Assembly: GCA_018000455.1 (NCBI GenBank)
Contig: JAGNJW010000001.1
Span: 262,311 to 326,310, forward strand
DNA from: Acidobacteriota bacterium
GTDB lineage: Bacteria; Acidobacteriota; Vicinamibacteria; Vicinamibacterales; UBA2999
DNA: 64,000 nucleotides
Reading direction: 5' to 3'
In this document: positions 30,882-56,949 of the stretch, piece by piece
Layout: the number at the start of each line of letters is the position of its first letter
Numbering within the stretch: position 1 is the first letter of the stretch
Translations under genes and position numbers: made by a program
The notes under the pieces: generated by a model
Told to the model about the DNA's origin: nothing
What the model saw: the letters and a program-made list of their open reading frames with translations, nothing else
Database searches by the model: none

Positions 30882-31988
30882 CTACAGGCGGCGGCCAGTG
30901 GATGCGTCGAACAAGTGCGCGTGCCCCTTTCCGATCCGCAGGCCCAAGCGGTCGCCGGTGCGCGGCGTGTGACCCGACGGCACCAGGACGCGGGTCAGCT
31001 CGCCCTCCAGTCCCAGCAGGCTCACGTGCACCGTCGCCTGCGCGCCGAGCGGCTCGACCACTTCCACGGTGGCCACGGCGTCGCCCTCACCAGGCGCCGT
31101 CACCGCGATATCGTGCGGGCGGATGCCGATGACCACGTCGCCACCATCGATCGCCGCGCTGGCGCCCGCCGCCTCTGTGACGCTCGCCTCCGACAGCTCG
31201 ATCGCCCCCGCGTGTGTCGTCACGCGCCACCGGTCAGTGGTGCGAGACAGGCGCCCGGGCCACAGGTTCATCGCCGGCGAACCCACGAACCGCGCGACGA
31301 AGGTCGTGGCCGGACGGTTGAAGGTGTCGAGCGGCGCCGCCACCTGTTCGATCGCGCCGTCGTTCATCACCGCGATCCGCGTGCCGAGCGTCATCGCCTC
31401 CTCCTGGTCGTGCGTCACGTAGACCATGGTCGCCCCGAGGCGGCGGTGCAGCAGCGCCAGCTCGGCGCGCGTCGTCACGCGCAGCAGCGGGTCCAGGTTC
31501 GAGAGTGGTTCGTCCAGCAGGAATGCCTGCGGCTCGCGGACGATGGCGCGGCCGAGCGCCACGCGCTGACGCTGGCCGCCCGAGAGCTGGGCGGGCCGGC
31601 GATCCAGCAGCGCCGCCAGGCCCAGCGAGGCTGCCGTGCTCGCGACCCTGGCGTCGACCACTCCAGGATCCGTCCCTCGCACGCGGAGGCCGAATGCCAG
31701 GTTCTCGGCGACGCTCTTGTGCGGGTAGAGCGCGTAGTTCTGGAAGACCATCGCCAGGTCGCGCTGCTGCGGCGGCACGCTCGTCACGTCGCGGTCGCCG
31801 ATGACGATCCGCCCACCCGTCGGGGCTTCGAGGCCGGCGATGAGCCGCAGCACGGTGCTCTTGCCGCTCCCGGACGGGCCCACCAGCACCAGCAGCTCGC
31901 CGTCGGCGATGTCGAGCGAGAGATCGCGAACGGCGGTGTGGCCGGTCGGAAAGACCTTGTCCACGTGGTGCAGGGCGATCGATGCCAT
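30882..31988 (-). CDS. sugar ABC transporter ATP-binding protein (MalK/UgpC type)
   Basis: Walker A GPSGSGKST, signature LSGGQRQRVALGRA, Walker B FLLDEPLSNLD, and a C-terminal TOBE-like regulatory domain. Confidence 0.9.
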   Translation of the reverse strand: MASIALHHVDKVFPTGHTAVRDLSLDIADGELLVLVGPSGSGKSTVLRLIAGLEAPTGGRIVIGDRDVTSVPPQQRDLAMVFQNYALYPHKSVAENLAFGLRVRGTDPGVVDARVASTAASLGLAALLDRRPAQLSGGQRQRVALGRAIVREPQAFLLDEPLSNLDPLLRVTTRAELALLHRRLGATMVYVTHDQEEAMTLGTRIAVMNDGAIEQVAAPLDTFNRPATTFVARFVGSPAMNLWPGRLSRTTDRWRVTTHAGAIELSEASVTEAAGASAAIDGGDVVIGIRPHDIAVTAPGEGDAVATVEVVEPLGAQATVHVSLLGLEGELTRVLVPSGHTPRTGDRLGLRIGKGHAHLFDASTGRRL

Positions 31989-31989
31989 G

Positions 31990-32808
31990 TCAGCCTTTCA
32001 CGGCTCCGGACGTGAGTCCCGCGACGATGCGCCGCTGGGCCAGCAGCACGATGATCGCCACCGGCGCCGTGGCCACGATCGCCGCGGCCAGGATCTCGCC
32101 CCACGGCACCTGGTACTGGCCCCGGAAGAGGGCGATGGCGACCGGCACGGTGTAGCGTTCGGGTCCCAGGGCGAACGACAGCGCGAAGAGGAACTCGTTC
32201 CAACTGTAGAGGAAGGTGAGGATGGCCGTGGTCGCCAGGCCCGGCGCCGAGAGCGGCAGCACCACCTCCCACAGCGTGCGCAGCCGGCCCGCGCCGTCCA
32301 TGAACGCGGCCTCTTCGAGCTGCGCCGGGAGCTGCCGGAAGAACCCGACCAGCATCCAGATGGTCAGCGGCATGGCGAAGGTCAAATAGGGCAGCACCAG
32401 CCCCGGATAGGTGTTGAGCAGCCGCAGCTCCCGCAGCACCAGGTACAACGGTGAGACGATGGAGATCTGCGGAAACATCGAGACGGCCAGCACGAAGGCG
32501 AGGGTGAACGTCTTGCCCGGGAACTGCATGCGCGCCAGGGCATAGGCGCAGCCGGCGCCCAGGGTGACCGAGAGCAGCGTCGTCAGCCCGGCGACGATGA
32601 GCGAGTTCCGTACGGGCGTCCAGAAGTCGCGGGCGTCGAAGAGCGCGCGGTAATGGTCGAGCACCAGCCTGTCGGGCACGAGCGAGGGCGCGTCGAACAG
32701 CCGGCTCTCCGGCGTGAAGGACGACACGAGCGCCCAGTACAGCGGGAACAGCACGGCGCCCACGACCAGCGTCGTCACGACCGCCCAGCGCCAGGAGGGC
32801 CGGGTCAT
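31990..32808 (-). CDS. carbohydrate ABC transporter permease (MalG-like)
   Basis: Six-TM BPD_transp_1 permease with an EAA-type loop (EEAAFMDGAGRLRTLWEVVLP). ATG at 32808 overlaps the upstream stop. Confidence 0.9.
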   Translation of the reverse strand: MTRPSWRWAVVTTLVVGAVLFPLYWALVSSFTPESRLFDAPSLVPDRLVLDHYRALFDARDFWTPVRNSLIVAGLTTLLSVTLGAGCAYALARMQFPGKTFTLAFVLAVSMFPQISIVSPLYLVLRELRLLNTYPGLVLPYLTFAMPLTIWMLVGFFRQLPAQLEEAAFMDGAGRLRTLWEVVLPLSAPGLATTAILTFLYSWNEFLFALSFALGPERYTVPVAIALFRGQYQVPWGEILAAAIVATAPVAIIVLLAQRRIVAGLTSGAVKG

Positions 32809-33704
32809 GCCGACCGCTCCAGGAACGCACCGCTGCCGAACAGGCGGATAGCGCCCAGCGCGAACAGGAACGCGACGGCGAAGACGAGGATCGAGAGCGC
32901 CGAGCCGAGGCCGAACTGCAGGTTCTGGAGCAGGGTCGTGAAGGTGTAGAGGGCAATCGGCTCGGTGGCGCTGCCCGGCCCGCCGCCGGTCATGACGTAG
33001 ACGAGATCGAAGACGCGGAAGGCATCCAGCGAGCGGAAGAGCGCGGCCACGAGGAGGGCCGGCCGCAAGAGCGGCAGCGTGATGTCGACGAACTGACGCC
33101 ACGCGCCGGCGCCATCCACCGCGGCGGCTTCGTAGAGGGCGCGGTCGATGTTCTGGAGGCCGGCCAGCAGCAGGATGGCCACAAACGGCGTCGTCTTCCA
33201 CGCATCGGCCAGGATGAGCGGCACCCAGGCGGCAAGCGCGTCGGCAAACCAGGTTGGCGCGCCGATGCCCAAACCGCCAAGCAGCGCCGTGGCCAGCCCC
33301 GCCGGGCTCTCGAAGATGAAGCGCCACACGAGCGCGGCGACCACCGTGGGAATGGCCCACGGCAGCAGCACCGCCGTGCGCACGAGGCCGCGCGCCCTGG
33401 TCACGCGGTCGAGCGCCATGGCCAGCAGGAGGCCGGCCGAGAGCTCCAGGGTGAGCGTGGCGGCGACGAAGACGCCGGTGTGGCCGAGCGCACTCCAGAC
33501 CCGCGGCGTGCCCAGTACCTCGCGGTAGTTGGCCGCACCCACGAAGGGCCGGCCGAGCCATGGCATCCGGAGATCGTGCAGGTGCAGCGACTCCCAGAAC
33601 GTCCAGAGAATGGGGAAGAGCGCGACGAGCGCGATGACCGCCAGCGCCGGCGTGGCCAGGGTCCAGGCCAGGCGCCGCTCGCTCGCACTTCGAGGCGCGA
33701 TCAC
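32805..33704 (-). CDS. carbohydrate ABC transporter permease (MalF-like)
   Basis: EAA loop YEAAAVDGAGAWRQFVDITLP. GTG 33704 overlaps the stop of the binding-protein gene (GTGA). Confidence 0.85.
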   Translation of the reverse strand: MIAPRSASERRLAWTLATPALAVIALVALFPILWTFWESLHLHDLRMPWLGRPFVGAANYREVLGTPRVWSALGHTGVFVAATLTLELSAGLLLAMALDRVTRARGLVRTAVLLPWAIPTVVAALVWRFIFESPAGLATALLGGLGIGAPTWFADALAAWVPLILADAWKTTPFVAILLLAGLQNIDRALYEAAAVDGAGAWRQFVDITLPLLRPALLVAALFRSLDAFRVFDLVYVMTGGGPGSATEPIALYTFTTLLQNLQFGLGSALSILVFAVAFLFALGAIRLFGSGAFLERSA

Positions 33705-34975
33705 GGCCGCCCCAGCTTCAGCCGTGCCAGCAGGGCGCGCATGCCGCCCGCGGCGTCCTGAAGGGCCGCCCGCGGCTCCTGCTGCCGGGTCAGCGCCCGG
33801 TGCAACGACACCTGCAGGAGGTTCGAGAGCTGGCTGTAGACCGGCGACACCGGCCGTGGCACCGCGGCCTCGATGATGCGCCGCGCCTCGGCCGGCGGCA
33901 TCGCCAGGGCACGGGCGAGCTCGGGCGTGTCGTAGAGAGCGGGTCGCGGCGGAAACTGCCCGGCGAGTGCCGCACGCTCGATCATCTGTTCCGGCGCCAG
34001 CAGGAACGCGACCAGCGCATACGCCTCGTCCGGCTGATCGCTGTAGGCGTTGATGGCGAGCGTCGACCCACCGAGCGCCGCCGTGGGCGCGCCGCCCGGC
34101 TGCGCGGGCAGGGGCGCCACGGCGAATTTCCCCGCCACGGTCGATTCGGCGGTGTCGTCCAGCAGCGCGTAGGCGTACGGCCAGTTCCGCATGAACAGCG
34201 CCTGGCCGTTCTGGAACGCGAAGCGGGTCTGCTCCTCCTGCCACGTCAGCACGGCCGGCGGCACGACCCCGTCCTCGTAGATGGCGTCGCGCATGAAGGT
34301 GAGCGCCCCGACGGCCGCCTCCGAATCCACGACCACCTGACCGGCGTCGTCGAGGATGGCGCCGCCAAACGCCCCCAGGTGCTCCACGAACACGGTCACG
34401 AGGCCCTCGTAGCGCGCGCCCTGCCAGAGGAAGCCGAAGGTGGTCTGGCGCGCGGCCTGTGCGACCTTCGACATCCGCACGAGATCGGCAAGCGTCTCCG
34501 GCGGTCCAGGCAGCAGATCCGTGCGCCAGTAGAGCATGCCCACGTCCACGAACCAGGGCAGCGCGTAGAGCGCCCCATCCCAGCGACTGGCGGCCATCGC
34601 CGGCGCGAAGAACTCCGCCACGGGCGGCTGAAACCCGTCGAGCGGTGCGATCCACCCGGCGGCGGCGAACTCCGGCGTCCACACCACGTCCAGCTGCAGC
34701 ACGTCCGGCTCGCTCACCCGCGCGTTGAGCCATTGCACGTAGAGCCGATGGCGCTGGTCGGCGGCATCGGGCGTGGGGCGAAGGGCCACCGCGATTCCGG
34801 GGTGGGTCTGGCGAAACCGCTCGAGCTGACGACGGATGACGTCGCCTTCTTTGCCCACCAGGCTCCCGGAGAGGGTGAGCACGCGCCCGGGCTCCCCCGT
34901 GCAGCCGGCGGCCAGCGTCGCCACGGCCGTGGCGCAGAGAGACAGGACGGCGATGCGCGGGAACGCGAGCAGCAT
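33701..34975 (-). CDS. ABC transporter extracellular solute-binding lipoprotein (family 1)
   Basis: Lipobox-like LAAGCTG after a hydrophobic leader. SBP_bac_1-like length and motifs (FMRNWPYAY, AINAYS). Confidence 0.85.
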   Translation of the reverse strand: MLLAFPRIAVLSLCATAVATLAAGCTGEPGRVLTLSGSLVGKEGDVIRRQLERFRQTHPGIAVALRPTPDAADQRHRLYVQWLNARVSEPDVLQLDVVWTPEFAAAGWIAPLDGFQPPVAEFFAPAMAASRWDGALYALPWFVDVGMLYWRTDLLPGPPETLADLVRMSKVAQAARQTTFGFLWQGARYEGLVTVFVEHLGAFGGAILDDAGQVVVDSEAAVGALTFMRDAIYEDGVVPPAVLTWQEEQTRFAFQNGQALFMRNWPYAYALLDDTAESTVAGKFAVAPLPAQPGGAPTAALGGSTLAINAYSDQPDEAYALVAFLLAPEQMIERAALAGQFPPRPALYDTPELARALAMPPAEARRIIEAAVPRPVSPVYSQLSNLLQVSLHRALTRQQEPRAALQDAAGGMRALLARLKLGRP

Positions 34976-45754: not shown

Positions 45755-47119
45755 TCATACCGACCCTGGGGGAGACGCTTCGCAGCTCATGGCCCTGAGC
45801 AACTCGTCCCAGGCGCGCACGGCCCGAGCCCAGGAGTAAGTGCGGGCCACGTCGACTCCGCGCTGACCCAGCCGCTGCCGCTCTGAGCGATCGCGTGACA
45901 GCCAAAAAAGCGCCTGGATCGCGAGGCCCATGTCGATGACGCCGCGCACGCCATTGGTATTGAACGGCCGTGCGACCGTGGGCACGAGCACCGAGAAGGG
46001 CGCCGCATACTCGGGTGGCGCCGCGATGTCGGTGATGATGTTCGCGACGCCGCAGGCGCCAGTCTCGAGGACCGTCAACTCCCAGCCCCCGCTGTCGTAG
46101 GGTAGCAGATGCACGTCGCACGCCCCCATGCGACGAGCCAGTTCGTGCTCATCGACGCCGAGGCCCACACGGATCGATCGATCGAAGACGACCTGGTCCG
46201 AGATGCCCATGCGGTCGGCCAACAGGTCCAGATGCCATCCTCCCGACTGCGACCGCTCGATCCTCGACGGCAACTCGGTGTGCAAGTAGAGCCGCGCCGC
46301 CCGATTGACGGGCCCTCGGTGCACGTGCCCCGATCCGCAGTACCGGCAGGTCGGTGGCGCGTTTCCGGGGCCGTCGACTGGATCGACCGTAAACGGCGTG
46401 ACGCGCCAGCAGGCGTGGCACCGGACGAACGCACCCTGGGCGAACGCGCTGAATATCTCCAGGGCCCGGTCTGGATGCTTGTGCCCGGTATTCCTGCCGA
46501 AGTAGCCGACGAGCAGCGCATCGCCGTCATCGAGCCCGAAGAACCGGCGCCGCATGTCCTCGCGCGCATCCCCCGTCGGGGGCGTGAAGACGCTGGTGTC
46601 CACCCCGTGCGGAATGGGGGAAGCGACGCGCGGCGTCTCTTGCCCTGCACAGACCACATGGAGGGCGCGGCCGGCAAACGCCGTGTACGGCACGACCACA
46701 TCCACTCGTCGAAGCAGGCTGCCGGTGGGCGGGGCGAGTGGCGCCCAGTCCGTCGGCATGTAGGCCACGACGTCGACGCGGCCCCGGAGTCCCAACTGCT
46801 CCAACTGGTCGAGCACGAGGCTCTGCTGGGATCCGATCGACAGCAACAGACGTCGCGACTGCCCGGGCTGCACATCTGAAGTCAGTTCCGCCAAGAGCTT
46901 CCCGAGGCGCTCTCCGCTCAGGTCTTCAGGGGCGTCGGGCGGATCCACATCGAAGACCCGATAGGGCGGCGGCTGCCGCCAGACCGCCGGCGGATAGAAG
47001 CCGACGAAGTCCACGGACCACTGGTGCTGCGTCTGCAGTCCTCGCGCGATCTGGTCTCCGACCACCGAGAAGCCGCGGTGGAGCGAGGGGTGATCGCCGA
47101 CGACAATCAGCGCTGGCAT
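45755..47119 (-). CDS. GT-B (GT4-like) glycosyltransferase with inserted Cys4 zinc-ribbon
   Basis: N-terminal Rossmann-like start MPALIVVGDH. LVGYFGRNTGHKHPDRALEIF. C-terminal EX7E-like WELTVLETGACGV. Insert CHAC-x20-CRYC at 46337..46420. ATG 47119 lies 1 nt after the upstream stop. Confidence 0.7.
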   Translation of the reverse strand: MPALIVVGDHPSLHRGFSVVGDQIARGLQTQHQWSVDFVGFYPPAVWRQPPPYRVFDVDPPDAPEDLSGERLGKLLAELTSDVQPGQSRRLLLSIGSQQSLVLDQLEQLGLRGRVDVVAYMPTDWAPLAPPTGSLLRRVDVVVPYTAFAGRALHVVCAGQETPRVASPIPHGVDTSVFTPPTGDAREDMRRRFFGLDDGDALLVGYFGRNTGHKHPDRALEIFSAFAQGAFVRCHACWRVTPFTVDPVDGPGNAPPTCRYCGSGHVHRGPVNRAARLYLHTELPSRIERSQSGGWHLDLLADRMGISDQVVFDRSIRVGLGVDEHELARRMGACDVHLLPYDSGGWELTVLETGACGVANIITDIAAPPEYAAPFSVLVPTVARPFNTNGVRGVIDMGLAIQALFWLSRDRSERQRLGQRGVDVARTYSWARAVRAWDELLRAMSCEASPPGSV

Positions 47120-47120
47120 G

Positions 47121-48416
47121 CTAGAGCCGCTCCGAGAGCCGATCGATCTCCGCACGCCACTGACCCACGGCGACGGCCCGACGTTGTCGGCGCATGGCGT
47201 CGCCCGCCGCCAGGCTGAGGGCCGCTCGGTCAGCGGGCGATTCGGCAAGGGAGCACAGCGCTTGCACGGCGACGCCGCCGTCGATGAGCGCGTTCAGATG
47301 CCCTTCCGACGCGTAGGAAAGCGCGCAGGGCTGGACGAGCCTCGCGTGGGGCCCGATGATGTCGACTGCCGCACCGTAGCGCGTGGTGATCGTCGGGACG
47401 CCGAGGGCGCATCCCGCGAGTACTGCCGGCTCGACATCCGCCAACTGGTGAGGCAGGAAGTGGATGTCCATGGCCGTCAGCGCCTCGAGCAGCAACTCGC
47501 GCGACGTGATGAGGCGGTGCCCTTCGTCTCCGCCGATCGACACTTGACCCTCCAAGCCACAGGCGCGCCGGAACGCCGCAAACGTCCATTGGTTGGGCAC
47601 GAAGGATCGGCCGCGGGACGCCAGGACCCCATCGATGAGGACGAGGCGCGCCTCGGGATGTGGCCGACCGCGTGTCCCTTCGGTGCCCAGGCACGACGCG
47701 CACCTCGATGTCGAGATCGCCACGAGTGCATCGTCAATCGCGAACACCGTGACGCGTGCGCAGCGCGTGCAGGCCCAATACAGGCCCTGGACGAAAAGCC
47801 GGAAGATCTGAATTGCGAGAAAGCCTCGGCGATCCCCGATATCGCCGAGGCAACAACCGATGACCAGGCTCTCTGGCGGGAGACGCCACAGGCGCTGCCG
47901 AAGCGCGTCGCCATCTGAGGGCGGGCGCCGATCGTCGGATGCCACGTCCACCAGCGGCGGGATGATGACAGGAGGTCGCCGAAGGGGCGCCGACCGTTCC
48001 GCGCAGACGCGATTCACCGCGCGCGCGCCAAACGCGGACTCGGTCACGATCAGGTCGGCGAAACGAAATAGATCCGATGTCCCTGGTTGAAACGGGATCT
48101 CGGCGGAGGACGCGTGCACGACCACGCTCACGCGGGCCTTGAGGCCTGCGGTGACGAGCGCCCACATCACACGACGTTGCTCGGCGATGCTGCCGCGCAG
48201 CAGCACCAGAGGCCGCGAGGCCGCCGGCTCGAGAGAGCCGATCAACCGGCGGACGAGTCGAACCGCGCGTGTGACGACGCGCGGGGTGTCGGGCAACTCG
48301 TGGCAGCTGACCTCCCAGCGTCCCTGTTCCGCAAGCGCCCGTGCCAACGCAGGCGACGCCGGCAGCACCGGCGAACGTTCCGCGTCTCCGGCCTCGAGGA
48401 TCAGGAGGCGCTGCAC
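47121..48416 (-). CDS. GT-B-like protein, paralogue of 45755..47119, with Cys4 zinc-ribbon and degenerate acceptor/donor motif
   Basis: Same architecture as its paralogue: CTRC-x19-CASC at 47691..47771. The C-terminal region reads DVEPAVLAGCALGVPTITT, so the second Glu of EX7E is replaced. GTG start lies 9 nt after the precursor stop. Confidence 0.65.
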   Translation of the reverse strand: MQRLLILEAGDAERSPVLPASPALARALAEQGRWEVSCHELPDTPRVVTRAVRLVRRLIGSLEPAASRPLVLLRGSIAEQRRVMWALVTAGLKARVSVVVHASSAEIPFQPGTSDLFRFADLIVTESAFGARAVNRVCAERSAPLRRPPVIIPPLVDVASDDRRPPSDGDALRQRLWRLPPESLVIGCCLGDIGDRRGFLAIQIFRLFVQGLYWACTRCARVTVFAIDDALVAISTSRCASCLGTEGTRGRPHPEARLVLIDGVLASRGRSFVPNQWTFAAFRRACGLEGQVSIGGDEGHRLITSRELLLEALTAMDIHFLPHQLADVEPAVLAGCALGVPTITTRYGAAVDIIGPHARLVQPCALSYASEGHLNALIDGGVAVQALCSLAESPADRAALSLAAGDAMRRQRRAVAVGQWRAEIDRLSERL

Positions 48417-48425
48417 GCGTCGGGG

Positions 48426-48665
48426 CTAGCTGTCGGCGAACCGCCGGGCGCGGCCGCCGGCGATGCTCCGCAGGTCGGCGTCCGAGAGCTTGTCGAGCTC
48501 GTCGACGTCCTCCATCGCGCTGCTCAGGTCGCCGTCCGAGAAAGCGTAGCCCAGTTCCTGAGCCAGGCCCAGCAGGGCGCCCCGCTGCGCGTCCTCAGCC
48601 CTCGTTGCCAACTGCTCGTCGGTTGCGATCTTGACCAGGAACTCTTTCGCGGATTGCACGCTCAT
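48426..48665 (-). CDS. Nif11-like leader peptide / RiPP precursor candidate with double-glycine motif
   Basis: MSVQSAKEFLVKIATDEQLATRAED...LAQELGYAFSDGDL...LSDADLRSIAGG|RARRFADS. The Nif11-type N-terminal helix pattern and the LSxxELxxIxGG consensus are both met. GAGGGGG lies 5 nt upstream of the ATG. Confidence 0.75.
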   Translation of the reverse strand: MSVQSAKEFLVKIATDEQLATRAEDAQRGALLGLAQELGYAFSDGDLSSAMEDVDELDKLSDADLRSIAGGRARRFADS

Positions 48666-48767
48666 GATTCCCCCTCAGGAGCCTATTTGCGTTGCCGACA
48701 GCGACAGGACGCTCGCCAGCCGCATGATGAGCCGAGGGGCAATGCGGTGTCAAACCGACGTCCTGCG

Positions 48768-50282
48768 CTAACTACACATGACGGCCGCGCGATATGTCAT
48801 GAGGCCGCTGAACAACTGTCGATTCAACGCCTTCGGCGAAATCGTGGGCAAGGCATATCCTGCAGCCTCGAATCGCGAACCCTTCAAGAGGCCATAGAGT
48901 TCCAGGATGCAGTCCTTGTGAAACGGCTCCATGATGAATCTGAACAAATCCTGGTGATACTGAGAAGTCTCATGATGACCAGCCGCGTCGGCCAGGACAT
49001 ACAGTTCCTTTTGTGCGCATAGTGTTCGCGGGCGGTCGGTGAGGTATCGAACAAGCCTGTGCTGCAGCCGGATTGCGGTGTCGTCGATGTCACGGCTGCC
49101 CGCGAACGCGCCGAAGTACGCCTGCAGGACTCCATTGAATATGTTGACCGCGCCCGGACCGGACAGGAGGGCCATCAGGTCCTCCGACAACGCGCACAGA
49201 CACAACGATGTCGTCATCTTGACGAGCGCGCTCGAGACGTCCCGGATGACCTGCGGGCCACGCAGATTGTCCGGCAGATCACGCATGTCGAGACAGCTGT
49301 CGAGGTCGGTCTGATACACCCGCTCACTGAATTGGTTGATCAGGAAGTTGGTGGTCACGGACGCATGCCTCGCGACGCCCGCTTCGAGAATCGCGCGAGC
49401 GTTGACCTGGGCAACCTTCTGATAGATCGCCACGAAATTGGCGACCAGGTCCTCGAGATCGCACGCGGGGGACAGGTGTCCTGAGGCGGGCCGCCTGACG
49501 GTCAGCGGCCCATGGCTCAGACGATGCCAGATGAAGCGGATACGCGCGGCCACAGTCGTGGCGTCGGCGTCGTGAGCAAGGAACACGCCCCCCGTCCGCC
49601 TCGTTCTCGTGCCCCGATCGAAACAGTCGAACTCCGGCGTGTCGTGGGTCCCGAACCGCACCGCCAACAGTGCCGCGAGGCCTGCGTCAACCGACGCCAG
49701 TGCCTGCTGGAACCTGTACTCATTCGCGGCGCCCGTTTCTAGCAGTGAGTGCAAGGCCTTCAGCCCGCTCCCCACGACTTGCAGTCTCAAGTGCTCATCG
49801 AGCATCAGGTGGACCCGGGGAAAGTCGGAGTAAGACCTGTCAGGACTGGGCCGGACTTGCTGGAAGCTCGTCTCCGAAAGGGCGGTCAGCCCCTGGATGC
49901 CTTTTGACTTGACGCCCCGTATGCCGCGCTTGGCAAGGCTGCCGGCCTCGGCGGATCGTGAATAGATGGTGCGACCAGCCGCGAGTGGCGTCGAGCAGGG
50001 TTGCGGCTCCGCACAGGAGGCAAAGCGTCCAAGCAGGTCTGCCTCTTCGGGCGTCAGGTCTGGATGTCGATGAGTGATGAGAAAGCGGCGAAGAACACGG
50101 TCCGTCGCAGGAAGAAACTCGGAACGATCGACTGTTTCAACTGACGGGGCAAGAAGGGGACTGGCCACCAGGGCATCGTATCGGAGATCCCGGGGGCTTC
50201 TCCGGCCGGCACCCAGGCGGAACCGATGGCGACAGGGCGTGGGCCCCACCGTATGATCGGCGAGGAGCAGTCCCGTGTCCAA
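48768..50282 (-). CDS. orphan 504-aa protein, no recognisable family
   Basis: Long ORF in a visibly AT-richer stretch with protein-like, largely helical composition. It lies directly upstream of the precursor gene. The TTG start at 50282 overlaps the divergent GT2 start, so the true start is uncertain. Confidence 0.5.
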   Translation of the reverse strand: MDTGLLLADHTVGPTPCRHRFRLGAGRRSPRDLRYDALVASPLLAPSVETVDRSEFLPATDRVLRRFLITHRHPDLTPEEADLLGRFASCAEPQPCSTPLAAGRTIYSRSAEAGSLAKRGIRGVKSKGIQGLTALSETSFQQVRPSPDRSYSDFPRVHLMLDEHLRLQVVGSGLKALHSLLETGAANEYRFQQALASVDAGLAALLAVRFGTHDTPEFDCFDRGTRTRRTGGVFLAHDADATTVAARIRFIWHRLSHGPLTVRRPASGHLSPACDLEDLVANFVAIYQKVAQVNARAILEAGVARHASVTTNFLINQFSERVYQTDLDSCLDMRDLPDNLRGPQVIRDVSSALVKMTTSLCLCALSEDLMALLSGPGAVNIFNGVLQAYFGAFAGSRDIDDTAIRLQHRLVRYLTDRPRTLCAQKELYVLADAAGHHETSQYHQDLFRFIMEPFHKDCILELYGLLKGSRFEAAGYALPTISPKALNRQLFSGLMTYRAAVMCS

Positions 50283-51114
50283 TAGACCGCGCTATAGGGC
50301 CGTGGTGGTGGTGCCCACCTTCAACGCCAGGCACACGATCGGCCAGACGCTCTCTTCCATCGCCGACAGCATTCGCCACTGCGCTTCGACCCGAGGTGGG
50401 GCCGACCGAATCGCCGTGTCGGTGGTCGACGACGCCTCGACCGACGACACGGCGTCGCTCGTCGTGGCCTTCGCCAGGACGTCGCCCTTCGATGTCCTCC
50501 TGACCGCCCTCGAGCAGAACCACGGGCGTGGACACGCGCGCAATCGAGCGGTCGCGGCCGCCGCGGCGGACTGCTACTTCTTCCTTGATCACGACGACGA
50601 GTACCTGCCGTCGCACATCACGGGGTGTCTCGACGCACTCGACGCTGATCCGCGGGCCGATTTCGTCAAGACCGGCGTCCAGCTGTCGGACCCAGTACAC
50701 CCGGACTGGGAACCCCGGATCGCGGCCAGTCTAACGCAGAATCTGTGCATCCGGGCGTACTGCCATGGCCTCGTCGGTGGGTTCCACGAAGAGCCCGAGG
50801 TCGAAGTCTTCGGGTGCGATGACATTCTGTACAATCGCTCGCTGCGCGCGTGTTGCCGTGGCTTGGACACGCCGGCCAGGACGGTCACGTTCAGCCGTCG
50901 GCCGGGCAACTCCTTCGACCGACAGTTCGAGCGGAAGTTCTCGCGGCCGGCGTCAGAAGCGGAGGTGACGTTGTCGCCGAGGCAACTCGAAGTGCGGGCC
51001 CGGGTCTGGGAGATTCACGCGCAGCGGCTGGCAGAGGTGAACGGGCGGCTGCGCCGGATAGCCTCCACGTCGCGCCGCGCGAGCGCGCCCATGGAGGCTC
51101 CCGCGCATGACTGA
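50275..51114 (+). CDS. family 2 glycosyltransferase (GT-A)
   Basis: GTG start with GGAG 7 nt upstream. VVVVPTFNARHTIGQTLSSI, VVDDASTDDT, NHGRGHARN, and FFLDHDDEY (DxD). Confidence 0.85.
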   Translation: MSNRPRYRAVVVVPTFNARHTIGQTLSSIADSIRHCASTRGGADRIAVSVVDDASTDDTASLVVAFARTSPFDVLLTALEQNHGRGHARNRAVAAAAADCYFFLDHDDEYLPSHITGCLDALDADPRADFVKTGVQLSDPVHPDWEPRIAASLTQNLCIRAYCHGLVGGFHEEPEVEVFGCDDILYNRSLRACCRGLDTPARTVTFSRRPGNSFDRQFERKFSRPASEAEVTLSPRQLEVRARVWEIHAQRLAEVNGRLRRIASTSRRASAPMEAPAHD

Positions 51115-51880
51115 CTCCTCGGGCTCCCCCTTCCGGGTCGAGTGTCGGGCCGTTCCGGCTGACGAGCCGGTGCACGTCGATGACGAAGGATGTCGGATCT
51201 ACGCCGTGATGGTGACGGGCAAGACCTCCGCGCGTGCGGGACTCGCCAGGGCGTCGGTCCAGAGTTTTCTTTCGCAGACCTACGGCAACCGTGTCCTGGT
51301 GATTGTCAATGACGGGGCATTCGATCTCCGCGTGCTGGGGCTTCCAGCGGACCGCGTCGTGCACATTCGCCCGGGTGACAGGCAATCACTCGGCCACTTG
51401 AGAAACTGCGGGCTCGACGCCGTCCCGGCCGGGGCCGTCTGGACCTATTGGGACGATGACGACTGGCATCATCCGCGTTTGATGGCCTCGCAGTATCGGG
51501 TGATGTCGCGACTCGGGGTCGAGGCGTGCTTCCTCCGCAATCAGGTCAAGTGCAGCCTCGTGACGAGCACCGCCTTTGTCGATCGTCACCCTGGGGGCTT
51601 TGCGGGCACCTTCATGGGGCATGCCAGTCCGCACTTCCGGTTTCCCGACTTGGGGAAACGCGAGGACTCGGTCTTCACTGCCGCCGTCAAGCACGGCGCG
51701 CGATGGTATCCCTGGAACAACCCGCCCCATTACTATCTGCGGTTCTTCCATCGGGCCAACGTGTGGGACGAGCAGCATTTCGGCTTCGACCGTCGCGAGC
51801 CCGGGACGTGGCAGGTGCCGCGGCAGTCGGCCGAGTATCTCTCGTCCGTCCTGCGGCACTATCCCGGAGTCGCGCCGTGA
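51107..51880 (+). CDS. GT-A-like glycosyltransferase (divergent family 2)
   Basis: YAVMVTGKTSARAGLARASVQSFLSQTYGNRVLVIVNDG, GHLRNCGLDA, and YWDDDDWHHP (DxD). Overlaps the upstream gene by 8 nt. Confidence 0.7.
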   Translation: MTDSSGSPFRVECRAVPADEPVHVDDEGCRIYAVMVTGKTSARAGLARASVQSFLSQTYGNRVLVIVNDGAFDLRVLGLPADRVVHIRPGDRQSLGHLRNCGLDAVPAGAVWTYWDDDDWHHPRLMASQYRVMSRLGVEACFLRNQVKCSLVTSTAFVDRHPGGFAGTFMGHASPHFRFPDLGKREDSVFTAAVKHGARWYPWNNPPHYYLRFFHRANVWDEQHFGFDRREPGTWQVPRQSAEYLSSVLRHYPGVAP

Positions 51881-52506
51881 CCGCGGCCAAGCTCGCGGAG
51901 ATCGCCGTATTTCGCGGGGCGTGTCAGAAGATGCGTGAGCTGACGCCGCTCGTGTCGCTCGTGAAGCGCCGGCGAATCCGATCCGTCCTGGAGATCGGCA
52001 CGCTCAAAGGAGGCACGCTGTGGTTGTGGTGCCAGTTGACCGCCCCCGACGGTACGATCGTGAGCGTCGACTTGCCCGGCGGTGAGTTCGGCGGCGGGTA
52101 CGCCGAGGACGACATCGGCCGGCTGCGCGCCCATGCCAAGCCTGGGCAGTCACTGCATCTGATCCGCGGAGACTCGCACCTGCCGCGCACGTTGGGCGAG
52201 GTCACCGCGGCCCTTTCCGGAAGGTCACTCGATCTGCTGTTTCTCGACGGCGACCATCGCTACGCCGGAGTGAAGCAGGATTTCGAGATGTACGCGCCGT
52301 TGGTGCGGCAGGGGGGCCTGATCGTGATGCACGACATCTTGCCGCACCCCAGGGTCCCGGTCTGTGGTGTGCATCGATTCTGGAATGCGACCAAGAGGCA
52401 CTATCGCCATCGCGAGTTTTCCGAAGCGCACGACGACCGTGGGTGGGGACAATGGGGAGGCCTCGGCGTCATCACCTACACCCCGCAACGGCTCACATCG
52501 TCGTGA
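51877..52506 (+). CDS. class I SAM-dependent methyltransferase (CmcI/Methyltransf_24-like)
   Basis: GTG 51877 overlaps the upstream TGA (GTGA). VLEIGTLKGGTLWLW SAM-binding motif, FLDGDHRY, and GGLIVMHD. Confidence 0.8.
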   Translation: MTAAKLAEIAVFRGACQKMRELTPLVSLVKRRRIRSVLEIGTLKGGTLWLWCQLTAPDGTIVSVDLPGGEFGGGYAEDDIGRLRAHAKPGQSLHLIRGDSHLPRTLGEVTAALSGRSLDLLFLDGDHRYAGVKQDFEMYAPLVRQGGLIVMHDILPHPRVPVCGVHRFWNATKRHYRHREFSEAHDDRGWGQWGGLGVITYTPQRLTSS

Positions 52507-53558
52507 CAAAGACTGCGCGCGCCGGACCGTGGTGTCGACGCGATCGCGCGTCGGTACGACCCCTCCTCGTGGCCAACTATGCCTACGTCCTCGGGGGCGG
52601 CGAGGTCGGCCTTCGCATGTTGGTCGAAGGCCTCACGGCTCGTGGGCTTCGGCCGGTCCTCGCTGTTCCCGGCACGGGGCGACTCTTCGATGAGTTCGAG
52701 CAGCAGTCCATCGCCGAGGAACCGCCCCAGGCCGCGGCTGATCTCCGAGCCCTGGCGGCAGGCTGCCACGTGATCCACACGTTCTCCGCTCGCTGGGCGC
52801 TCGCGGCGGCGCGCGGCATGACCGGCAAGCCGCTGATCCTGCACGCATTGCTGCCGACCCGCTCCAGGGACGATCGCGCGGCGGCCAGCGCAGTGGACCT
52901 CGTCGTGTGCAACTCGCGCGCCACGGCTGCGCGCTTCGATCCTCCCGTGCGTCCCAGGGTCGTCTACAACGGCGTGCGAAGGCCGGAACCGGCGCGGCCG
53001 CCGCTTCACGTCCGTCCGGGGCGGCGCACCATCGGTCTTGTTGGGAATATCTGCCCCAGGAAAGGGCAGTACGACGTCTTGCCGGCGCTCGAGCGCGTGC
53101 TCGAACTCAGGCCCGATATCGACGTGGTCTTTGCCGGCCGTGTCAGCGGAGCGATCGGGCTGGTGCTCAGCGAGCGCGCGGCAACATCGGCAGGCCGCAT
53201 CCGCATGCTCGGATTCGTGCCGGACATCGCCGACCACCTCGCCACGTTGTCGCTCGTCCTCGTGCCCTCTCGATCCGAAGGGTTCGGGCGGGTCGCCGTC
53301 GAAGCCATGCGCGCCGGCACACCCATACTGGCGACGCGCGTCGAAGGCTTGATCGAAGGATTGTCCGGCCTGCGCGATCCGTGGCTGCCTGACGATCGAG
53401 CCCGGTGGGCCGAGCGGATCGTGCAGGAACTGGATGCGCCCTCACATTCCCGGGCAGAGCTCGAAGCGGCCGGTGCCAGATTCGACCCTTCGGCGTACAT
53501 CGAGGCGATCGTGGGTTGTTACGAAGACGTGCTGGGCGGGAGGGCGAACACGGACTAG
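52503..53558 (+). CDS. family 4 glycosyltransferase (GT-B, glycosyl transferases group 1)
   Basis: GTG 52503 overlaps the upstream TGA (GTGA). LLVANYAYVLGGGEVGL, LVGNICPRKGQ, and PSRSEGFGRVAVEAMRAGTPILAT (EX7E). Confidence 0.85.
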   Translation: MTKTARAGPWCRRDRASVRPLLVANYAYVLGGGEVGLRMLVEGLTARGLRPVLAVPGTGRLFDEFEQQSIAEEPPQAAADLRALAAGCHVIHTFSARWALAAARGMTGKPLILHALLPTRSRDDRAAASAVDLVVCNSRATAARFDPPVRPRVVYNGVRRPEPARPPLHVRPGRRTIGLVGNICPRKGQYDVLPALERVLELRPDIDVVFAGRVSGAIGLVLSERAATSAGRIRMLGFVPDIADHLATLSLVLVPSRSEGFGRVAVEAMRAGTPILATRVEGLIEGLSGLRDPWLPDDRARWAERIVQELDAPSHSRAELEAAGARFDPSAYIEAIVGCYEDVLGGRANTD

Positions 53559-55921: not shown

Positions 55922-56949
55922 TCAGAGCGAATCGAGGAACCGCAGCAGCTGCTGCTGAGCGGCTTCTGACAGCGCGCGGTAGCGCCGCCGCACCGGATCG
56001 GCCTCGCCCTGGTGGCGTTCGATGGCCGCCTGCCTCGTGAACGACAGGCCGTCGTGCATCAGCCGGTTCCGCGTCCGCAGCCCCCACAGGGGCGCCGTCC
56101 GCATCTTGTTGGCCGTGTCGGCATATTCGGGGTGCGGCAGCACCGGGATGCCGTCGCCAGACCCGATGTCGTGCGAGAGAAAGTCGCTGTACTAGTGGAT
56201 GAGCTTGTTCCCGAGTGCCGGCGGCACGGTGAACGCGCCGCCGTTGATCCTGGTGCCGGTCGGCGCCGTGATGATCGCGGCGACGTGGCAGGTGGCGCAG
56301 CCGATCTGATGGAACACCGCTTCGCCGGCCTCGACCTCCGGCGTGATCGCACCGCGGGACGGTACTTTGGTCGACCGCATGAAGTTCGCAAAGGCCACGA
56401 CATCCACGCCGTCGTCCTCCGGATCGGCGACGGTGTCGTAGACCGACACGTCGCGGCCGCTCGACGTGTTCTCGTCGGGCAGGAGCGGCGAGGTGATGCC
56501 CATCTCGTTCAGATAGGCGTCGGCGGAGAACGATTCCAGGCTGGCATGCTGGTTCTTCCAGCCGAAGCGGCCGATGCGCGTCGCGCCCCCTGATTCGAGC
56601 ACCGGCACGAGCACCACGGTCCCCTGCATCGCACGAGGCTGCTGCCTCTGGAACTCAGTAGCGTGCCGTTGGCAATCGCCTCGATGTAACCGCCTCCCAG
56701 CGTGCTGGTCGACAGACGAAGCGTGCTGATGTTGTCATCGAAGTTCACGAGCTCGAGGATCTCCGGATCCGTCGCGCGTGAGTGCACGAGTGACCCCCCC
56801 AGCGACTCGAAGAACTGGCCGTCGAGCAGGCGGCCCGTGTGATGTTCGGCGACCTGGCTGCCCGCCCCGGTCACCACGTTCTGGTGGCATTCGCGGCAGG
56901 ACTGCGCGTTGTAGGTCGGGCCCAAGCCGTCGGCAATCGTCTCGACTGG
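55922..56949 (-). pseudogene. DUF1111 di-haem oxidoreductase-family gene, 5'-truncated with one frameshift and one in-frame TAG
   Basis: Three collinear pieces. (1) DGLGPTYNAQSCRECH. (2) RIGRFGWKNQHASLESFSADAYLNEMGITSP...GCATCH. (3) YSDFLSHDIG...MRTAPLWGLRTRNRLMHDGLS...FLDSL. There is a frame change near 56630-56650 and a TAG at 56192-56194. Homology begins right after an in-frame TGA at 56950-56952. Confidence 0.8.

Follow-up and report, generated by a model that had tools for sequence, protein, structure and literature searches.

A cluster of eight genes in the genome of an Acidobacteriota bacterium of the Vicinamibacterales probably makes a glycosylated peptide that is synthesized by ribosomes and modified after translation (RiPP), with a 79-residue precursor of the Nif11 type as the substrate of glycosylation. 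The cluster occupies positions 45755-53558, on both strands, of a 64,000-nucleotide stretch of contig JAGNJW010000001.1 (positions 262,311 to 326,310), the whole of which is referred to here as the window. A glycosylated RiPP pathway had been proposed in a first-pass annotation made from the sequence, and the proposal now finds comparative support in the linkage of the peptide gene to a pair of glycosyltransferase-like genes, in an invariant Asp-Ser/Thr dipeptide of the peptide cores, in a C39 peptidase exporter encoded within one related operon and in gene fusions among relatives. Functional support is of this comparative-genomic kind throughout, drawing on gene neighbourhood and motifs.

On the minus strand the gene order is a 504-residue orphan (48768-50282), the precursor (48426-48665) and two paralogous glycosyltransferase-like proteins of the GT-B fold, named B (47121-48416) and A (45755-47119), which share a four-cysteine (Cys4) insert. 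The plus strand carries a GT2 gene (50275-51114), a GT-A-like gene (51107-51880), a methyltransferase gene (51877-52506) and a GT4 gene (52503-53558). All eight open reading frames (ORFs) are present as annotated, and all show the enrichment of GC at third codon positions (GC3) that is typical of real genes (0.73-0.90 in the cluster, 0.86-0.94 in flanking genes, in a sequence of 67% GC). The start codons of the orphan and GT4 genes can be placed to within about 10-40 codons. The distances between genes were also measured as annotated: 9 nt from the precursor stop to the B start and 1 nt from the B stop to the A start, with plus-strand overlaps of 8 nt (GT2/GT-A-like), 4 nt (GT-A-like/methyltransferase) and 4 nt (methyltransferase/GT4). 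The 9-nt and 1-nt gaps suggest translational coupling of the precursor, B and A.

The 79-residue product is a member of the Nif11-leader precursor family, as the annotation had called it. The TIGR03798 model matches residues 1-71 of 79 at 51.7 bits (cutoff 32.3; E 7.6e-14), and the Pfam Nif11 model PF07862 matches at 36.6 bits (cutoff 23.8). A Gly-Gly pair stands at residues 70-71, between the conserved leader and the variable region that follows it; the mean Gly-Gly position reported for Nif11-derived precursors is 70 (PMC2887384). The leader (residues 1-71) is encoded at 48453-48665 on the minus strand, and the eight residues after the Gly-Gly, RARRFADS, make up the core (48429-48452), directly followed by the stop codon. 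Close relatives bear the database name "Nif11-like leader peptide family RiPP precursor". The gene has a GC3 of 0.90, and a GAGGGGG ribosome-binding site directly precedes its ATG. Further upstream lies a candidate sigma-70-like promoter, TTGACA-18 nt-CATCAT (48724-48753, minus strand), proposed from a consensus match at 10 of 12 positions in a region that holds three such sites where a consensus scan expects 0.6. A TTGACACC box upstream of the precursor gene is kept in four related loci (L003, L081, L087 and L009; labels L001-L091 denote related loci throughout).

The association between the peptide and the A/B pair was followed in both directions. Starting from the glycosyltransferases, a word-indexed search, a scan of species-representative genomes and a metagenome scan with an A-type alignment returned a Nif11 gene beside the pair in six loci (L003, L004, L005, L007, L009 and L011). 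The 99-kb contig of L003, where B is 40% and A 50% identical to its window counterpart, has the order Nif11, B, A together with a divergent GT4 gene, a 529-residue GT2 protein and further genes. L004, a contig of 1.8 kb, holds the peptide, B and the beginning of A, while L005, from a Vicinamibacterales metagenome-assembled genome (MAG), has the full arrangement and the core RARRYLDS. Among the metagenome loci, L007 has the arrangement, L009 has two tandem precursors and L011 has the peptide downstream of A. L006, from an Acidobacteria MAG, is a rearranged and partly frame-shifted copy, and L008 is very short and peptide-less, its contig stopping 83 nt past A. A variant arrangement was seen in L010 (2588-7826) and L014, where GT4 comes after A, on A's strand, and the B-like protein has no Cys4 motif; this type also carries a DAO oxidoreductase and another glycosyltransferase ahead of A.

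Starting from the peptide, five subfamily members with different core types led to 11 loci (L078-L088). For all five peptides looked up, the pair, verified by hidden Markov model (HMM) and Cys4 motif, adjoins the peptide in every locus of sufficient length (L078-L080, L081-L083, L084, L085 and L087); one of the L081-L083 loci lies on a 378-kb Vicinamibacterales contig. The order peptide-B-A is kept across distant relatives, in which identity to the window proteins is 40-61% for A and 36-50% for B, and across loci of 61-74% GC, and a B-type protein adjoins the Nif11 gene in L003, L004, L005, L007, L009, L078-L083, L085 and L087. These Nif11 peptide genes almost always stand beside a Cys4 GT-B pair, and in most of the loci reached from the peptide a divergent GT4 and a GT2 fused to the GT-A-like protein come with them. 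The first-pass annotation had suggested looking for this co-occurrence and had allowed that relatives of the cluster might never carry a small peptide gene; they do, at six loci reached from the glycosyltransferases and for five of five peptides in the 11 loci reached from the peptide.

A profile of seven related precursors was then searched against 5.8 billion proteins. At the subfamily threshold of at least 96 bits it retrieved 74 distinct peptides; the following scores were 91, 78 and 64, and ordinary Nif11 precursors with Cys-rich cores reach about 50 bits. By these scores the window peptide is part of a discrete subfamily. Its members have cores of 7-37 residues, with modes at 8 and 11, in which Arg and Lys make up 22% of residues and Cys is missing altogether (0 in 1059 core residues). 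Every one of the 74 cores contains Asp followed by Ser or Thr (D-[ST]; 66 Ser, 8 Thr). In 32 of them the dipeptide forms the extreme C-terminus, as in RARRF[AFY]DS, RIRRRYVDT and cores ending RRRSLLDT, and in the other 42 it is internal, with 2-25 residues after it, as in FTGRDSLMR, GWRDDSLLW and cores beginning AWNDTMMFS or IYRDSLFWF. The residue before Asp is of twelve types, including L, Y, V, F, I, A, N, G, P and W; it is Arg in 29 of 74 cores. In 26 of the 74 the residue of the dipeptide is the sole Ser/Thr of the core. Because a single dipeptide is invariant in an otherwise hypervariable core, and because Ser and Thr are interchangeable there, D-[ST] behaves as would be expected of a hydroxyl modification site. 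The precursor of L003 (9935-10000) was called as an 83-residue protein running into the next gene; shifting the frame by 1 nt gives a product ending ELDRVAGG and then RARRFFDS before the stop codon, equal to the independent peptide P0161, and the frame break is probably an assembly indel.

The annotation had described A (454 residues) and B (431 residues) as paralogous GT-B proteins with a Cys4 insert, and this description holds: the two are 30% identical (E 2e-32) and have in common a CxxC-x(18-24)-CxxC insert. Neither has a model in Pfam or NCBIfam (June 2026). In Pfam, A gives sub-threshold GT1 matches alone and B gives no match; databases list the B-type partner as "hypothetical protein". 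When 1.84 billion representatives were searched exhaustively with a profile, 52 members of the family emerged at E<1e-30 and 256 at E<1e-10, far above the three matches each that a word-indexed search had returned for B and for the orphan. The members divide into A-type and B-type, and the Cys4 insert is kept in nearly all full-length ones.

An AlphaFold2 model of A, built from 17 A-type sequences (predicted local distance difference test score, pLDDT, 89.4; predicted template modelling score 0.89), consists of two Rossmann-type domains with a small beta-hairpin insert in the C-terminal domain that holds the four Cys (residues 234-261). Its nearest Foldseek neighbours in the PDB are the chlorovirus PBCV-NY2A glycosyltransferase, MshA, GlgM, BshA, PimB' and WaaG (E 6e-18 to 2e-14), with SdgB at rank 45 (E 9e-13), and sequence searches of the PDB with A gave weak GT4 matches. 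In an alignment that included the window GT4, the motif [GAS]RNxxxK[RH] and the Glu of WELTVLE[TA] are kept in 17 of 17 A-type proteins and fall on the positions where GT4 enzymes bind the diphosphate and the sugar. From the model and these motifs A can be assigned with confidence to the GT-B fold with donor-binding motifs like those of retaining GT4 enzymes, and it is predicted to be the transferase. In 12 of 12 B-type proteins the first motif is variable or gapped and a non-acidic residue replaces the Glu. Since the donor-binding motifs kept in A-type proteins are lacking, B is probably a non-catalytic partner, and possibly the peptide-binding subunit. Of the five glycosyltransferases that had been counted in the cluster, four are probably active and B is a probable pseudo-enzyme. 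More distantly, a motif-intact Cys4 GT-B protein, P0054, occurs on a phage-like contig of 33% GC (L089, 4314-17362; also L090 and L091) beside DnaG/DnaB primase-helicase and PD-(D/E)XK nuclease genes. Some eight glycosyltransferase genes make up the block around it, together with a DegT aminotransferase, three radical-SAM/SPASM genes and two ORFs of 51 and 48 residues.

The strongest single argument that the peptides are true exported RiPP precursors comes from L085, where a C39 exporter is encoded in the operon. Directly after A and on the same strand lies the gene for a 1041-residue protein with cyclic-nucleotide (cNMP)-binding, Peptidase_C39, ATP-binding cassette (ABC) membrane and ABC ATPase domains, and the same 1041-residue protein is encoded in L080, about 10 kb upstream. 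Such a protein is what processing and export of a Gly-Gly-leader peptide would be expected to require. Two genes downstream of the L080 transporter, a very acidic ORF of 70 residues (1104-1316) ends in EEEEAAGVEGG followed by QRVTGRWHGRRM, and it could be a second, unrelated precursor of the Gly-Gly type. A similar gene of 64 residues follows the C39 transporter in L085.

The gene tables of L003, L078-L088 and the window cluster contain no flippase, polymerase or phosphoglycosyl priming transferase, and no segment hydrophobic enough to span a membrane occurs in the eight window proteins. With lipid-carrier genes and membrane segments both missing, the chemistry would be cytoplasmic and not lipid-linked. 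Family scans of the cluster and its flanks bear out the earlier statement that Wzx/Wzy and priming transferase genes are absent. They were extended to ten further window ORFs, taking in every one big enough for a peptidase-containing ABC transporter. C39, LanM, YcaO, radical-SAM, Wzx/Wzy and priming transferase genes were found neither in the cluster nor in the other scanned window ORFs, so that the reported lack of LanM, YcaO and radical-SAM enzymes is likewise correct, and the ten further ORFs include neither a C39 transporter nor a known RiPP maturase. A MacB/HlyD/OEP efflux set at 59.6-63.8 kb was considered as the exporter and dropped, as unrelated genes lie between it and the cluster and it is not conserved beside related clusters.

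The plus-strand genes encode the remaining enzymes. The GT2 protein (279 residues, GT-A fold) matches PF00535 at 79.7 bits and carries DDxxxDD and DHDD motifs; its orthologues in L003, L005, L006 and L009 are 61-71% identical, and its nearest solved relatives are generic GT2 enzymes. The GT-A-like protein (257 residues) reaches 22 bits against PF00535, just below the cutoff, but has NDG and DDDD motifs. Direct reading of the sequences finds DxD-type motifs in both proteins. In L003, L009, L078 and L081 the GT2 and GT-A-like orthologues form one protein of 527-537 residues (at 7048-8637 in L003 and 5328-6917 in L009), and the GT-A-like protein is 53-57% identical to the C-terminal half of the 527-537-residue GT2 proteins of L003, L005 and L009. 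This Rosetta-stone link argues that the GT-A-like protein belongs to the pathway.

The GT2, GT4 and CmcI-like methyltransferase assignments of the annotation hold at model level. The predicted S-adenosylmethionine-dependent methyltransferase (209 residues; Methyltransf_24 or CmcI-RMNT type) matches PF13578 at 62.2 bits and PF04989 (CmcI / rhamnosyl O-methyltransferase) at 28.5 bits (cutoff 23.2), and in the PDB it is weakly similar to family-3 O-methyltransferases and to 6g7d. Methyltransf_24 genes also occur in L003, L081, L084 and L087; that of L084 (2056-4047) is fused to a B-type GT-B protein, giving 663 residues. The role of the methyltransferase is likely sugar O-methylation. The GT4 protein (GT-B fold, 351 residues, start codon uncertain by about 17 codons) matches PF13692 at 72.7, PF00534 at 66.9, PF13439 at 34 and PF20706 at 42.6 bits. 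Its orthologues in L003, L005, L006, L007 and L009 are 56-63% identical; GT4 is also present in L078-L083 and L085-L088, and it is divergent from the Nif11 gene wherever both occur. PF20706, "Family 4 glycosyltransferase in conflict systems", matches the GT4 proteins of the window, L003 and L078-L088 over about 60 residues alone. PADLOC defence-system models gave no match for any of the eight cluster proteins, and an anti-phage defence system was dropped from consideration on that ground. Lineage-specific extras in related loci include a GFO_IDH_MocA+DAO oxidoreductase, a 271-residue protein without assignment, more GT2 genes, a pyruvyl transferase, FkbM-type and other methyltransferases, a nucleoside triphosphate (NTP) transferase and a nucleoside diphosphate (NDP)-sugar epimerase. 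These are sugar-tailoring functions and point to an elaborated glycan that differs between lineages.

In the model that we favour, the precursor, B and A would be expressed jointly from the promoter of the precursor gene, and the pair would act in the cytoplasm on the leader-bearing peptide. As the catalytic, retaining GT4-like subunit, A would place the first sugar on the hydroxyl of the Ser or Thr after the invariant Asp. B, which keeps the fold and the zinc-ribbon-like insert and has lost the donor-binding residues, may serve in substrate binding or scaffolding, as GtfB does for GtfA. The GT4, GT2 and GT-A-like proteins would extend the first sugar into a short oligosaccharide, one sugar of which the CmcI/RMNT-like enzyme would O-methylate. 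Finally, a C39-peptidase ABC transporter, here encoded outside the 64-kb window, would cut after the Gly-Gly and export a cationic glyco-octapeptide. Our confidence in the specific site, in the order of the enzymes and in the role of B is lower than our confidence in the peptide as the substrate.

Several observations weigh against this model. No C39 peptidase or exporter was found in the 64-kb window; the annotation had noted the lack of such a peptidase, which is accurate for the window and does not extend to all relatives, some of which have it (in the operon in L085, and in L080). The case of nucleotide-sugar genes is similar, with none in the window cluster, as had been noted, and such genes in relatives. 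A relaxed HMM search detected no Nif11-like ORF in L006, L008, L010 or L012-L015; the peptide-less loci other than L010 (7.8 kb) are rearranged or very short. An AlphaFold2 model of B from four sequences was poor (pLDDT 57) and was discarded, leaving the fold of B to be read from its paralogy to A. The Cys4 GT-B family is also not confined to the Nif11 system and occurs in a phage-like setting, and relatives there may glycosylate other peptides or virion proteins. Finally, every functional step of the model is deduced from gene neighbourhood and motifs.

The transferases might instead use an acceptor that is not a peptide and make on it a glycan, glycolipid or small-molecule glycoside, for example a surface change giving self-immunity, with the Nif11 peptide co-inherited as an unmodified bacteriocin, signal or regulator. 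The GT2, GT4 and methyltransferase genes do look generic, their nearest curated models being polysaccharide or thiol-glycoside enzymes at low scores; some relatives carry glycan-tailoring genes (pyruvyl transferase, NDP-sugar epimerase, NTP transferase, GFO/DAO oxidoreductase), and L010 and L014 have transferases with no detectable peptide. This account is nevertheless unlikely. It leaves unexplained why the order peptide-B-A, with gaps of 9 nt and 1 nt in the window, is kept across distant relatives, and why D-[ST] never varies in cores that are otherwise hypervariable, a sign of selection on a modification site. The loci moreover lack the flippase, polymerase, priming transferase or membrane protein of lipid-linked assembly, and in L085 the C39 exporter shares an operon with the pair.

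Two further accounts accept the peptide as the acceptor and differ over what is done with it. Modification could fall on an Arg guanidinium (the target of EarP and NleB), the Asp side chain or the C-terminal carboxylate, and the methyltransferase might then act on the peptide. EarP, an arginine rhamnosyltransferase, is itself a GT-B enzyme, the cores are Arg-rich with Arg directly before D-[ST] in 29 of 74, and the Methyltransf_24/CmcI assignment leaves the substrate unfixed. We regard this as quite unlikely, given that Ser and Thr interchange (66/8) at the invariant position and the flanking Arg is not invariant; in addition, where an Asp-Ser motif is concerned, the nearest precedent in mechanism is Ser O-glycosylation by the GT-B enzyme SdgB (PMC8561734). 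The peptide might, alternatively, be a scaffold or primer on whose near-C-terminal Ser/Thr an oligosaccharide or glycosyl-amino acid is built and then released, much as pearlin pathways use a Nif11-like scaffold peptide or glycogenin primes glycogen synthesis. A C-terminal position is typical of scaffold-peptide chemistry in pearlin pathways, and 32 of 74 members have D-[ST] at the extreme C-terminus; cores down to 7-8 residues are unusually small for a bioactive RiPP, and the window encodes no exporter. Against this, the dipeptide is internal in 42 of 74, with 2-25 residues after it, and no peptide aminoacyl-tRNA ligase, release protease or hydrolase is conserved in the loci. The in-operon exporter of L085 further implies export of the peptide itself, and we consider release from a scaffold very unlikely.

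The 504-residue orphan had been presented as part of the system, and this assignment was not upheld. It has no match in Pfam, NCBIfam, PADLOC or the PDB, including Pfam and PDB searches with a four-sequence profile, and three relatives were found among 5.8 billion proteins by word-indexed search. Its homologues in L001 and L002 have no Nif11 gene or glycosyltransferase pair nearby: one adjoins a nucleotidyl transferase and a GH114 gene on a contig of 41% GC, and the other a methyltransferase-like gene. Linkage to the glycosyltransferase genes described here is confined to the window and L006; the orphan is missing from L003, L005, L009 and L078-L088. With three relatives, unrelated contexts and absence from more than ten related clusters, a role as core enzyme was rejected. 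Elsewhere GT4 is as a rule the direct divergent neighbour of the precursor gene, a place that the orphan takes in the window. It has the lowest GC (61.8%) and GC3 (0.73) of the cluster, and its L001 homologue, 51% identical, lies on a contig of 40.7% GC, which suggests that the gene has moved horizontally between very different genomes. Probably the gene is accessory or was inserted recently, and it is not a conserved part of the system.

The genes around the cluster are housekeeping genes unrelated to it. One flank holds an S15 peptidase, a cystathionine gamma-synthase and a pyrroloquinoline quinone (PQQ) dehydrogenase, and the other two genes without assignment, a YHYH protein, an HtrA-like protease and the MacB/HlyD/OEP efflux set. 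Three adjacent or overlapping minus-strand ORFs in different frames (55922-56143, 56192-56629 and 56509-56925) contain CxxCH haem-binding motifs (CRECH, CATCH), which suggests that they are pieces of one di-haem protein, either a frame-shifted gene or the result of sequencing errors. A strong AT skew (0.29) at 32-34 kb coincides with an ordinary sugar ABC-transporter operon on the minus strand (30882-34975) encoding an ATPase, two permeases and a binding protein. No tRNA genes were found in the window.

The system is plausibly an undescribed form of glycosylated RiPP and a new RiPP class. The stronger proposal is that glycosylation is the defining and perhaps sole modification, that a leader-guided Cys4 A/B pair, with A catalytic and the pseudo-enzyme B reading the leader or the core, primes Asp-Ser/Thr in a tiny, cationic, Cys-free core, and that three transferases and a methyltransferase build an oligosaccharide upon it; to this we give a little less than an even chance, and we hold equally tentatively the part of it that makes the system widespread in uncultured soil Acidobacteriota (Vicinamibacterales) and other high-GC lineages. 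Known glycosylated RiPPs are few, and in those checked the sugars are added by a single enzyme or by late tailoring. If the proposal is right, a sugar assembly line of several enzymes acting on a short ribosomal peptide would broaden RiPP chemistry, the unmodelled Cys4 GT-B family would gain its first function, and a leader with Asp-Ser/Thr would offer a compact acceptor tag for leader-directed glyco-engineering. The producers are mainly Acidobacteriota of the Vicinamibacterales type, and one peptide is found on 37 contigs and indexed in 71 blocks of an assembly collection, so that the product may matter ecologically in soil. Full-text literature searches, with subscription-only papers outside their scope, turned up no account of any Nif11 or RiPP system that centres on a GT-B pair, in keeping with the earlier remark that no described Nif11-leader system of this make-up was known. 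The closest remark concerns GT2 genes near prochlorosin clusters and the rarity of glycosylated RiPPs (PMC10783134).

The closest relatives by precursor are the Nif11-derived precursors (N11P), such as the prochlorosins, with which the window peptide shares the leader family, a Gly-Gly near residue 70, a variable core and, in some relatives, a C39 ABC transporter. Glycosylation goes unmentioned in the founding Nif11 paper (PMC2887384). In the N11P systems known so far, Cys/Ser/Thr-rich cores are worked on by LanM, cyclodehydratases or radical-SAM enzymes, whereas here the cores are Cys-free, of 7-37 residues, with one invariant D-[ST], and the sole neighbouring enzymes are glycosyltransferases and methyltransferases.

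Glycocins such as sublancin, glycocin F and thurandacin employ one GT2 enzyme of the GT-A fold, of the SunS type, that adds single sugars to cores of about 30-45 residues whose helices are held by disulfides and in which Cys is often S-glycosylated. Here, in contrast, the genes coupled to the precursor encode a GT-B pair, no Cys occurs in the cores, and the presence of three additional transferases plus a methyltransferase implies an oligosaccharide. By the usual meaning of the term, the window peptide is no glycocin. The likeness would lie in ribosomal origin, a double-glycine leader, glycosylation of Ser, Thr or Cys and export by a peptidase-ABC transporter (PMC12457901).

Two protein-glycosylation systems make the proposed scheme chemically ordinary. 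For serine-rich-repeat adhesins, GtfA is catalytic and GtfB binds the acceptor, and GtfC and later transferases extend the glycan before export (PMC6973325). In Staphylococcus aureus the GT-B enzyme SdgB adds O-linked N-acetylglucosamine to Ser in a minimal Asp-Ser-Asp motif, and its paralogue SdgA acts second (PMC8561734). GtfA/GtfB is, like the pair proposed here, a cytoplasmic two-protein GT-B unit of a catalytic and an acceptor-binding paralogue that primes Ser/Thr ahead of extension and dedicated export, and the pattern of motifs in A and B would fit such a division of labour. Its substrates, however, are very large repeat adhesins, its hosts are Firmicutes, and export runs through SecA2/Y2 and not a C39 ABC transporter. 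SdgB and SdgA are likewise a paralogous GT-B pair directed at an Asp-Ser motif, and SdgB is a structural neighbour of A, but their acceptor is a long SD repeat, both paralogues are active in sequence and no leader peptide is involved. Both pairs carry the DUF1975 beta-domain, which gave no match in A (E up to 0.01) or B (E up to 10); A and B have the Cys4 insert in the C-terminal domain instead. Lacking DUF1975, A and B are not members of the GtfA/B-SdgA/B family, and their proposed substrate is a short peptide guided by a leader.

Lipid-linked polysaccharide clusters, of the Wzx/Wzy or ABC-dependent kind, differ in carrying priming, flippase and polymerase or export genes, of which none is found in the window cluster, its flanks, L003 or L078-L088. 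Tailoring glycosyltransferases within RiPP clusters are, by contrast, a feature shared with cacaoidin, NAI-112 and glycosylated lasso peptides and thiopeptides, and in cacaoidin and one lasso peptide more than one sugar is attached to a single residue (PMC8068269, PMC11912497). In all of these, glycosylation comes late, on a scaffold made by a class-defining enzyme such as a lanthipeptide, lasso or thiopeptide synthetase, whereas here glycosylation is apparently the only modification and the one that defines the class.

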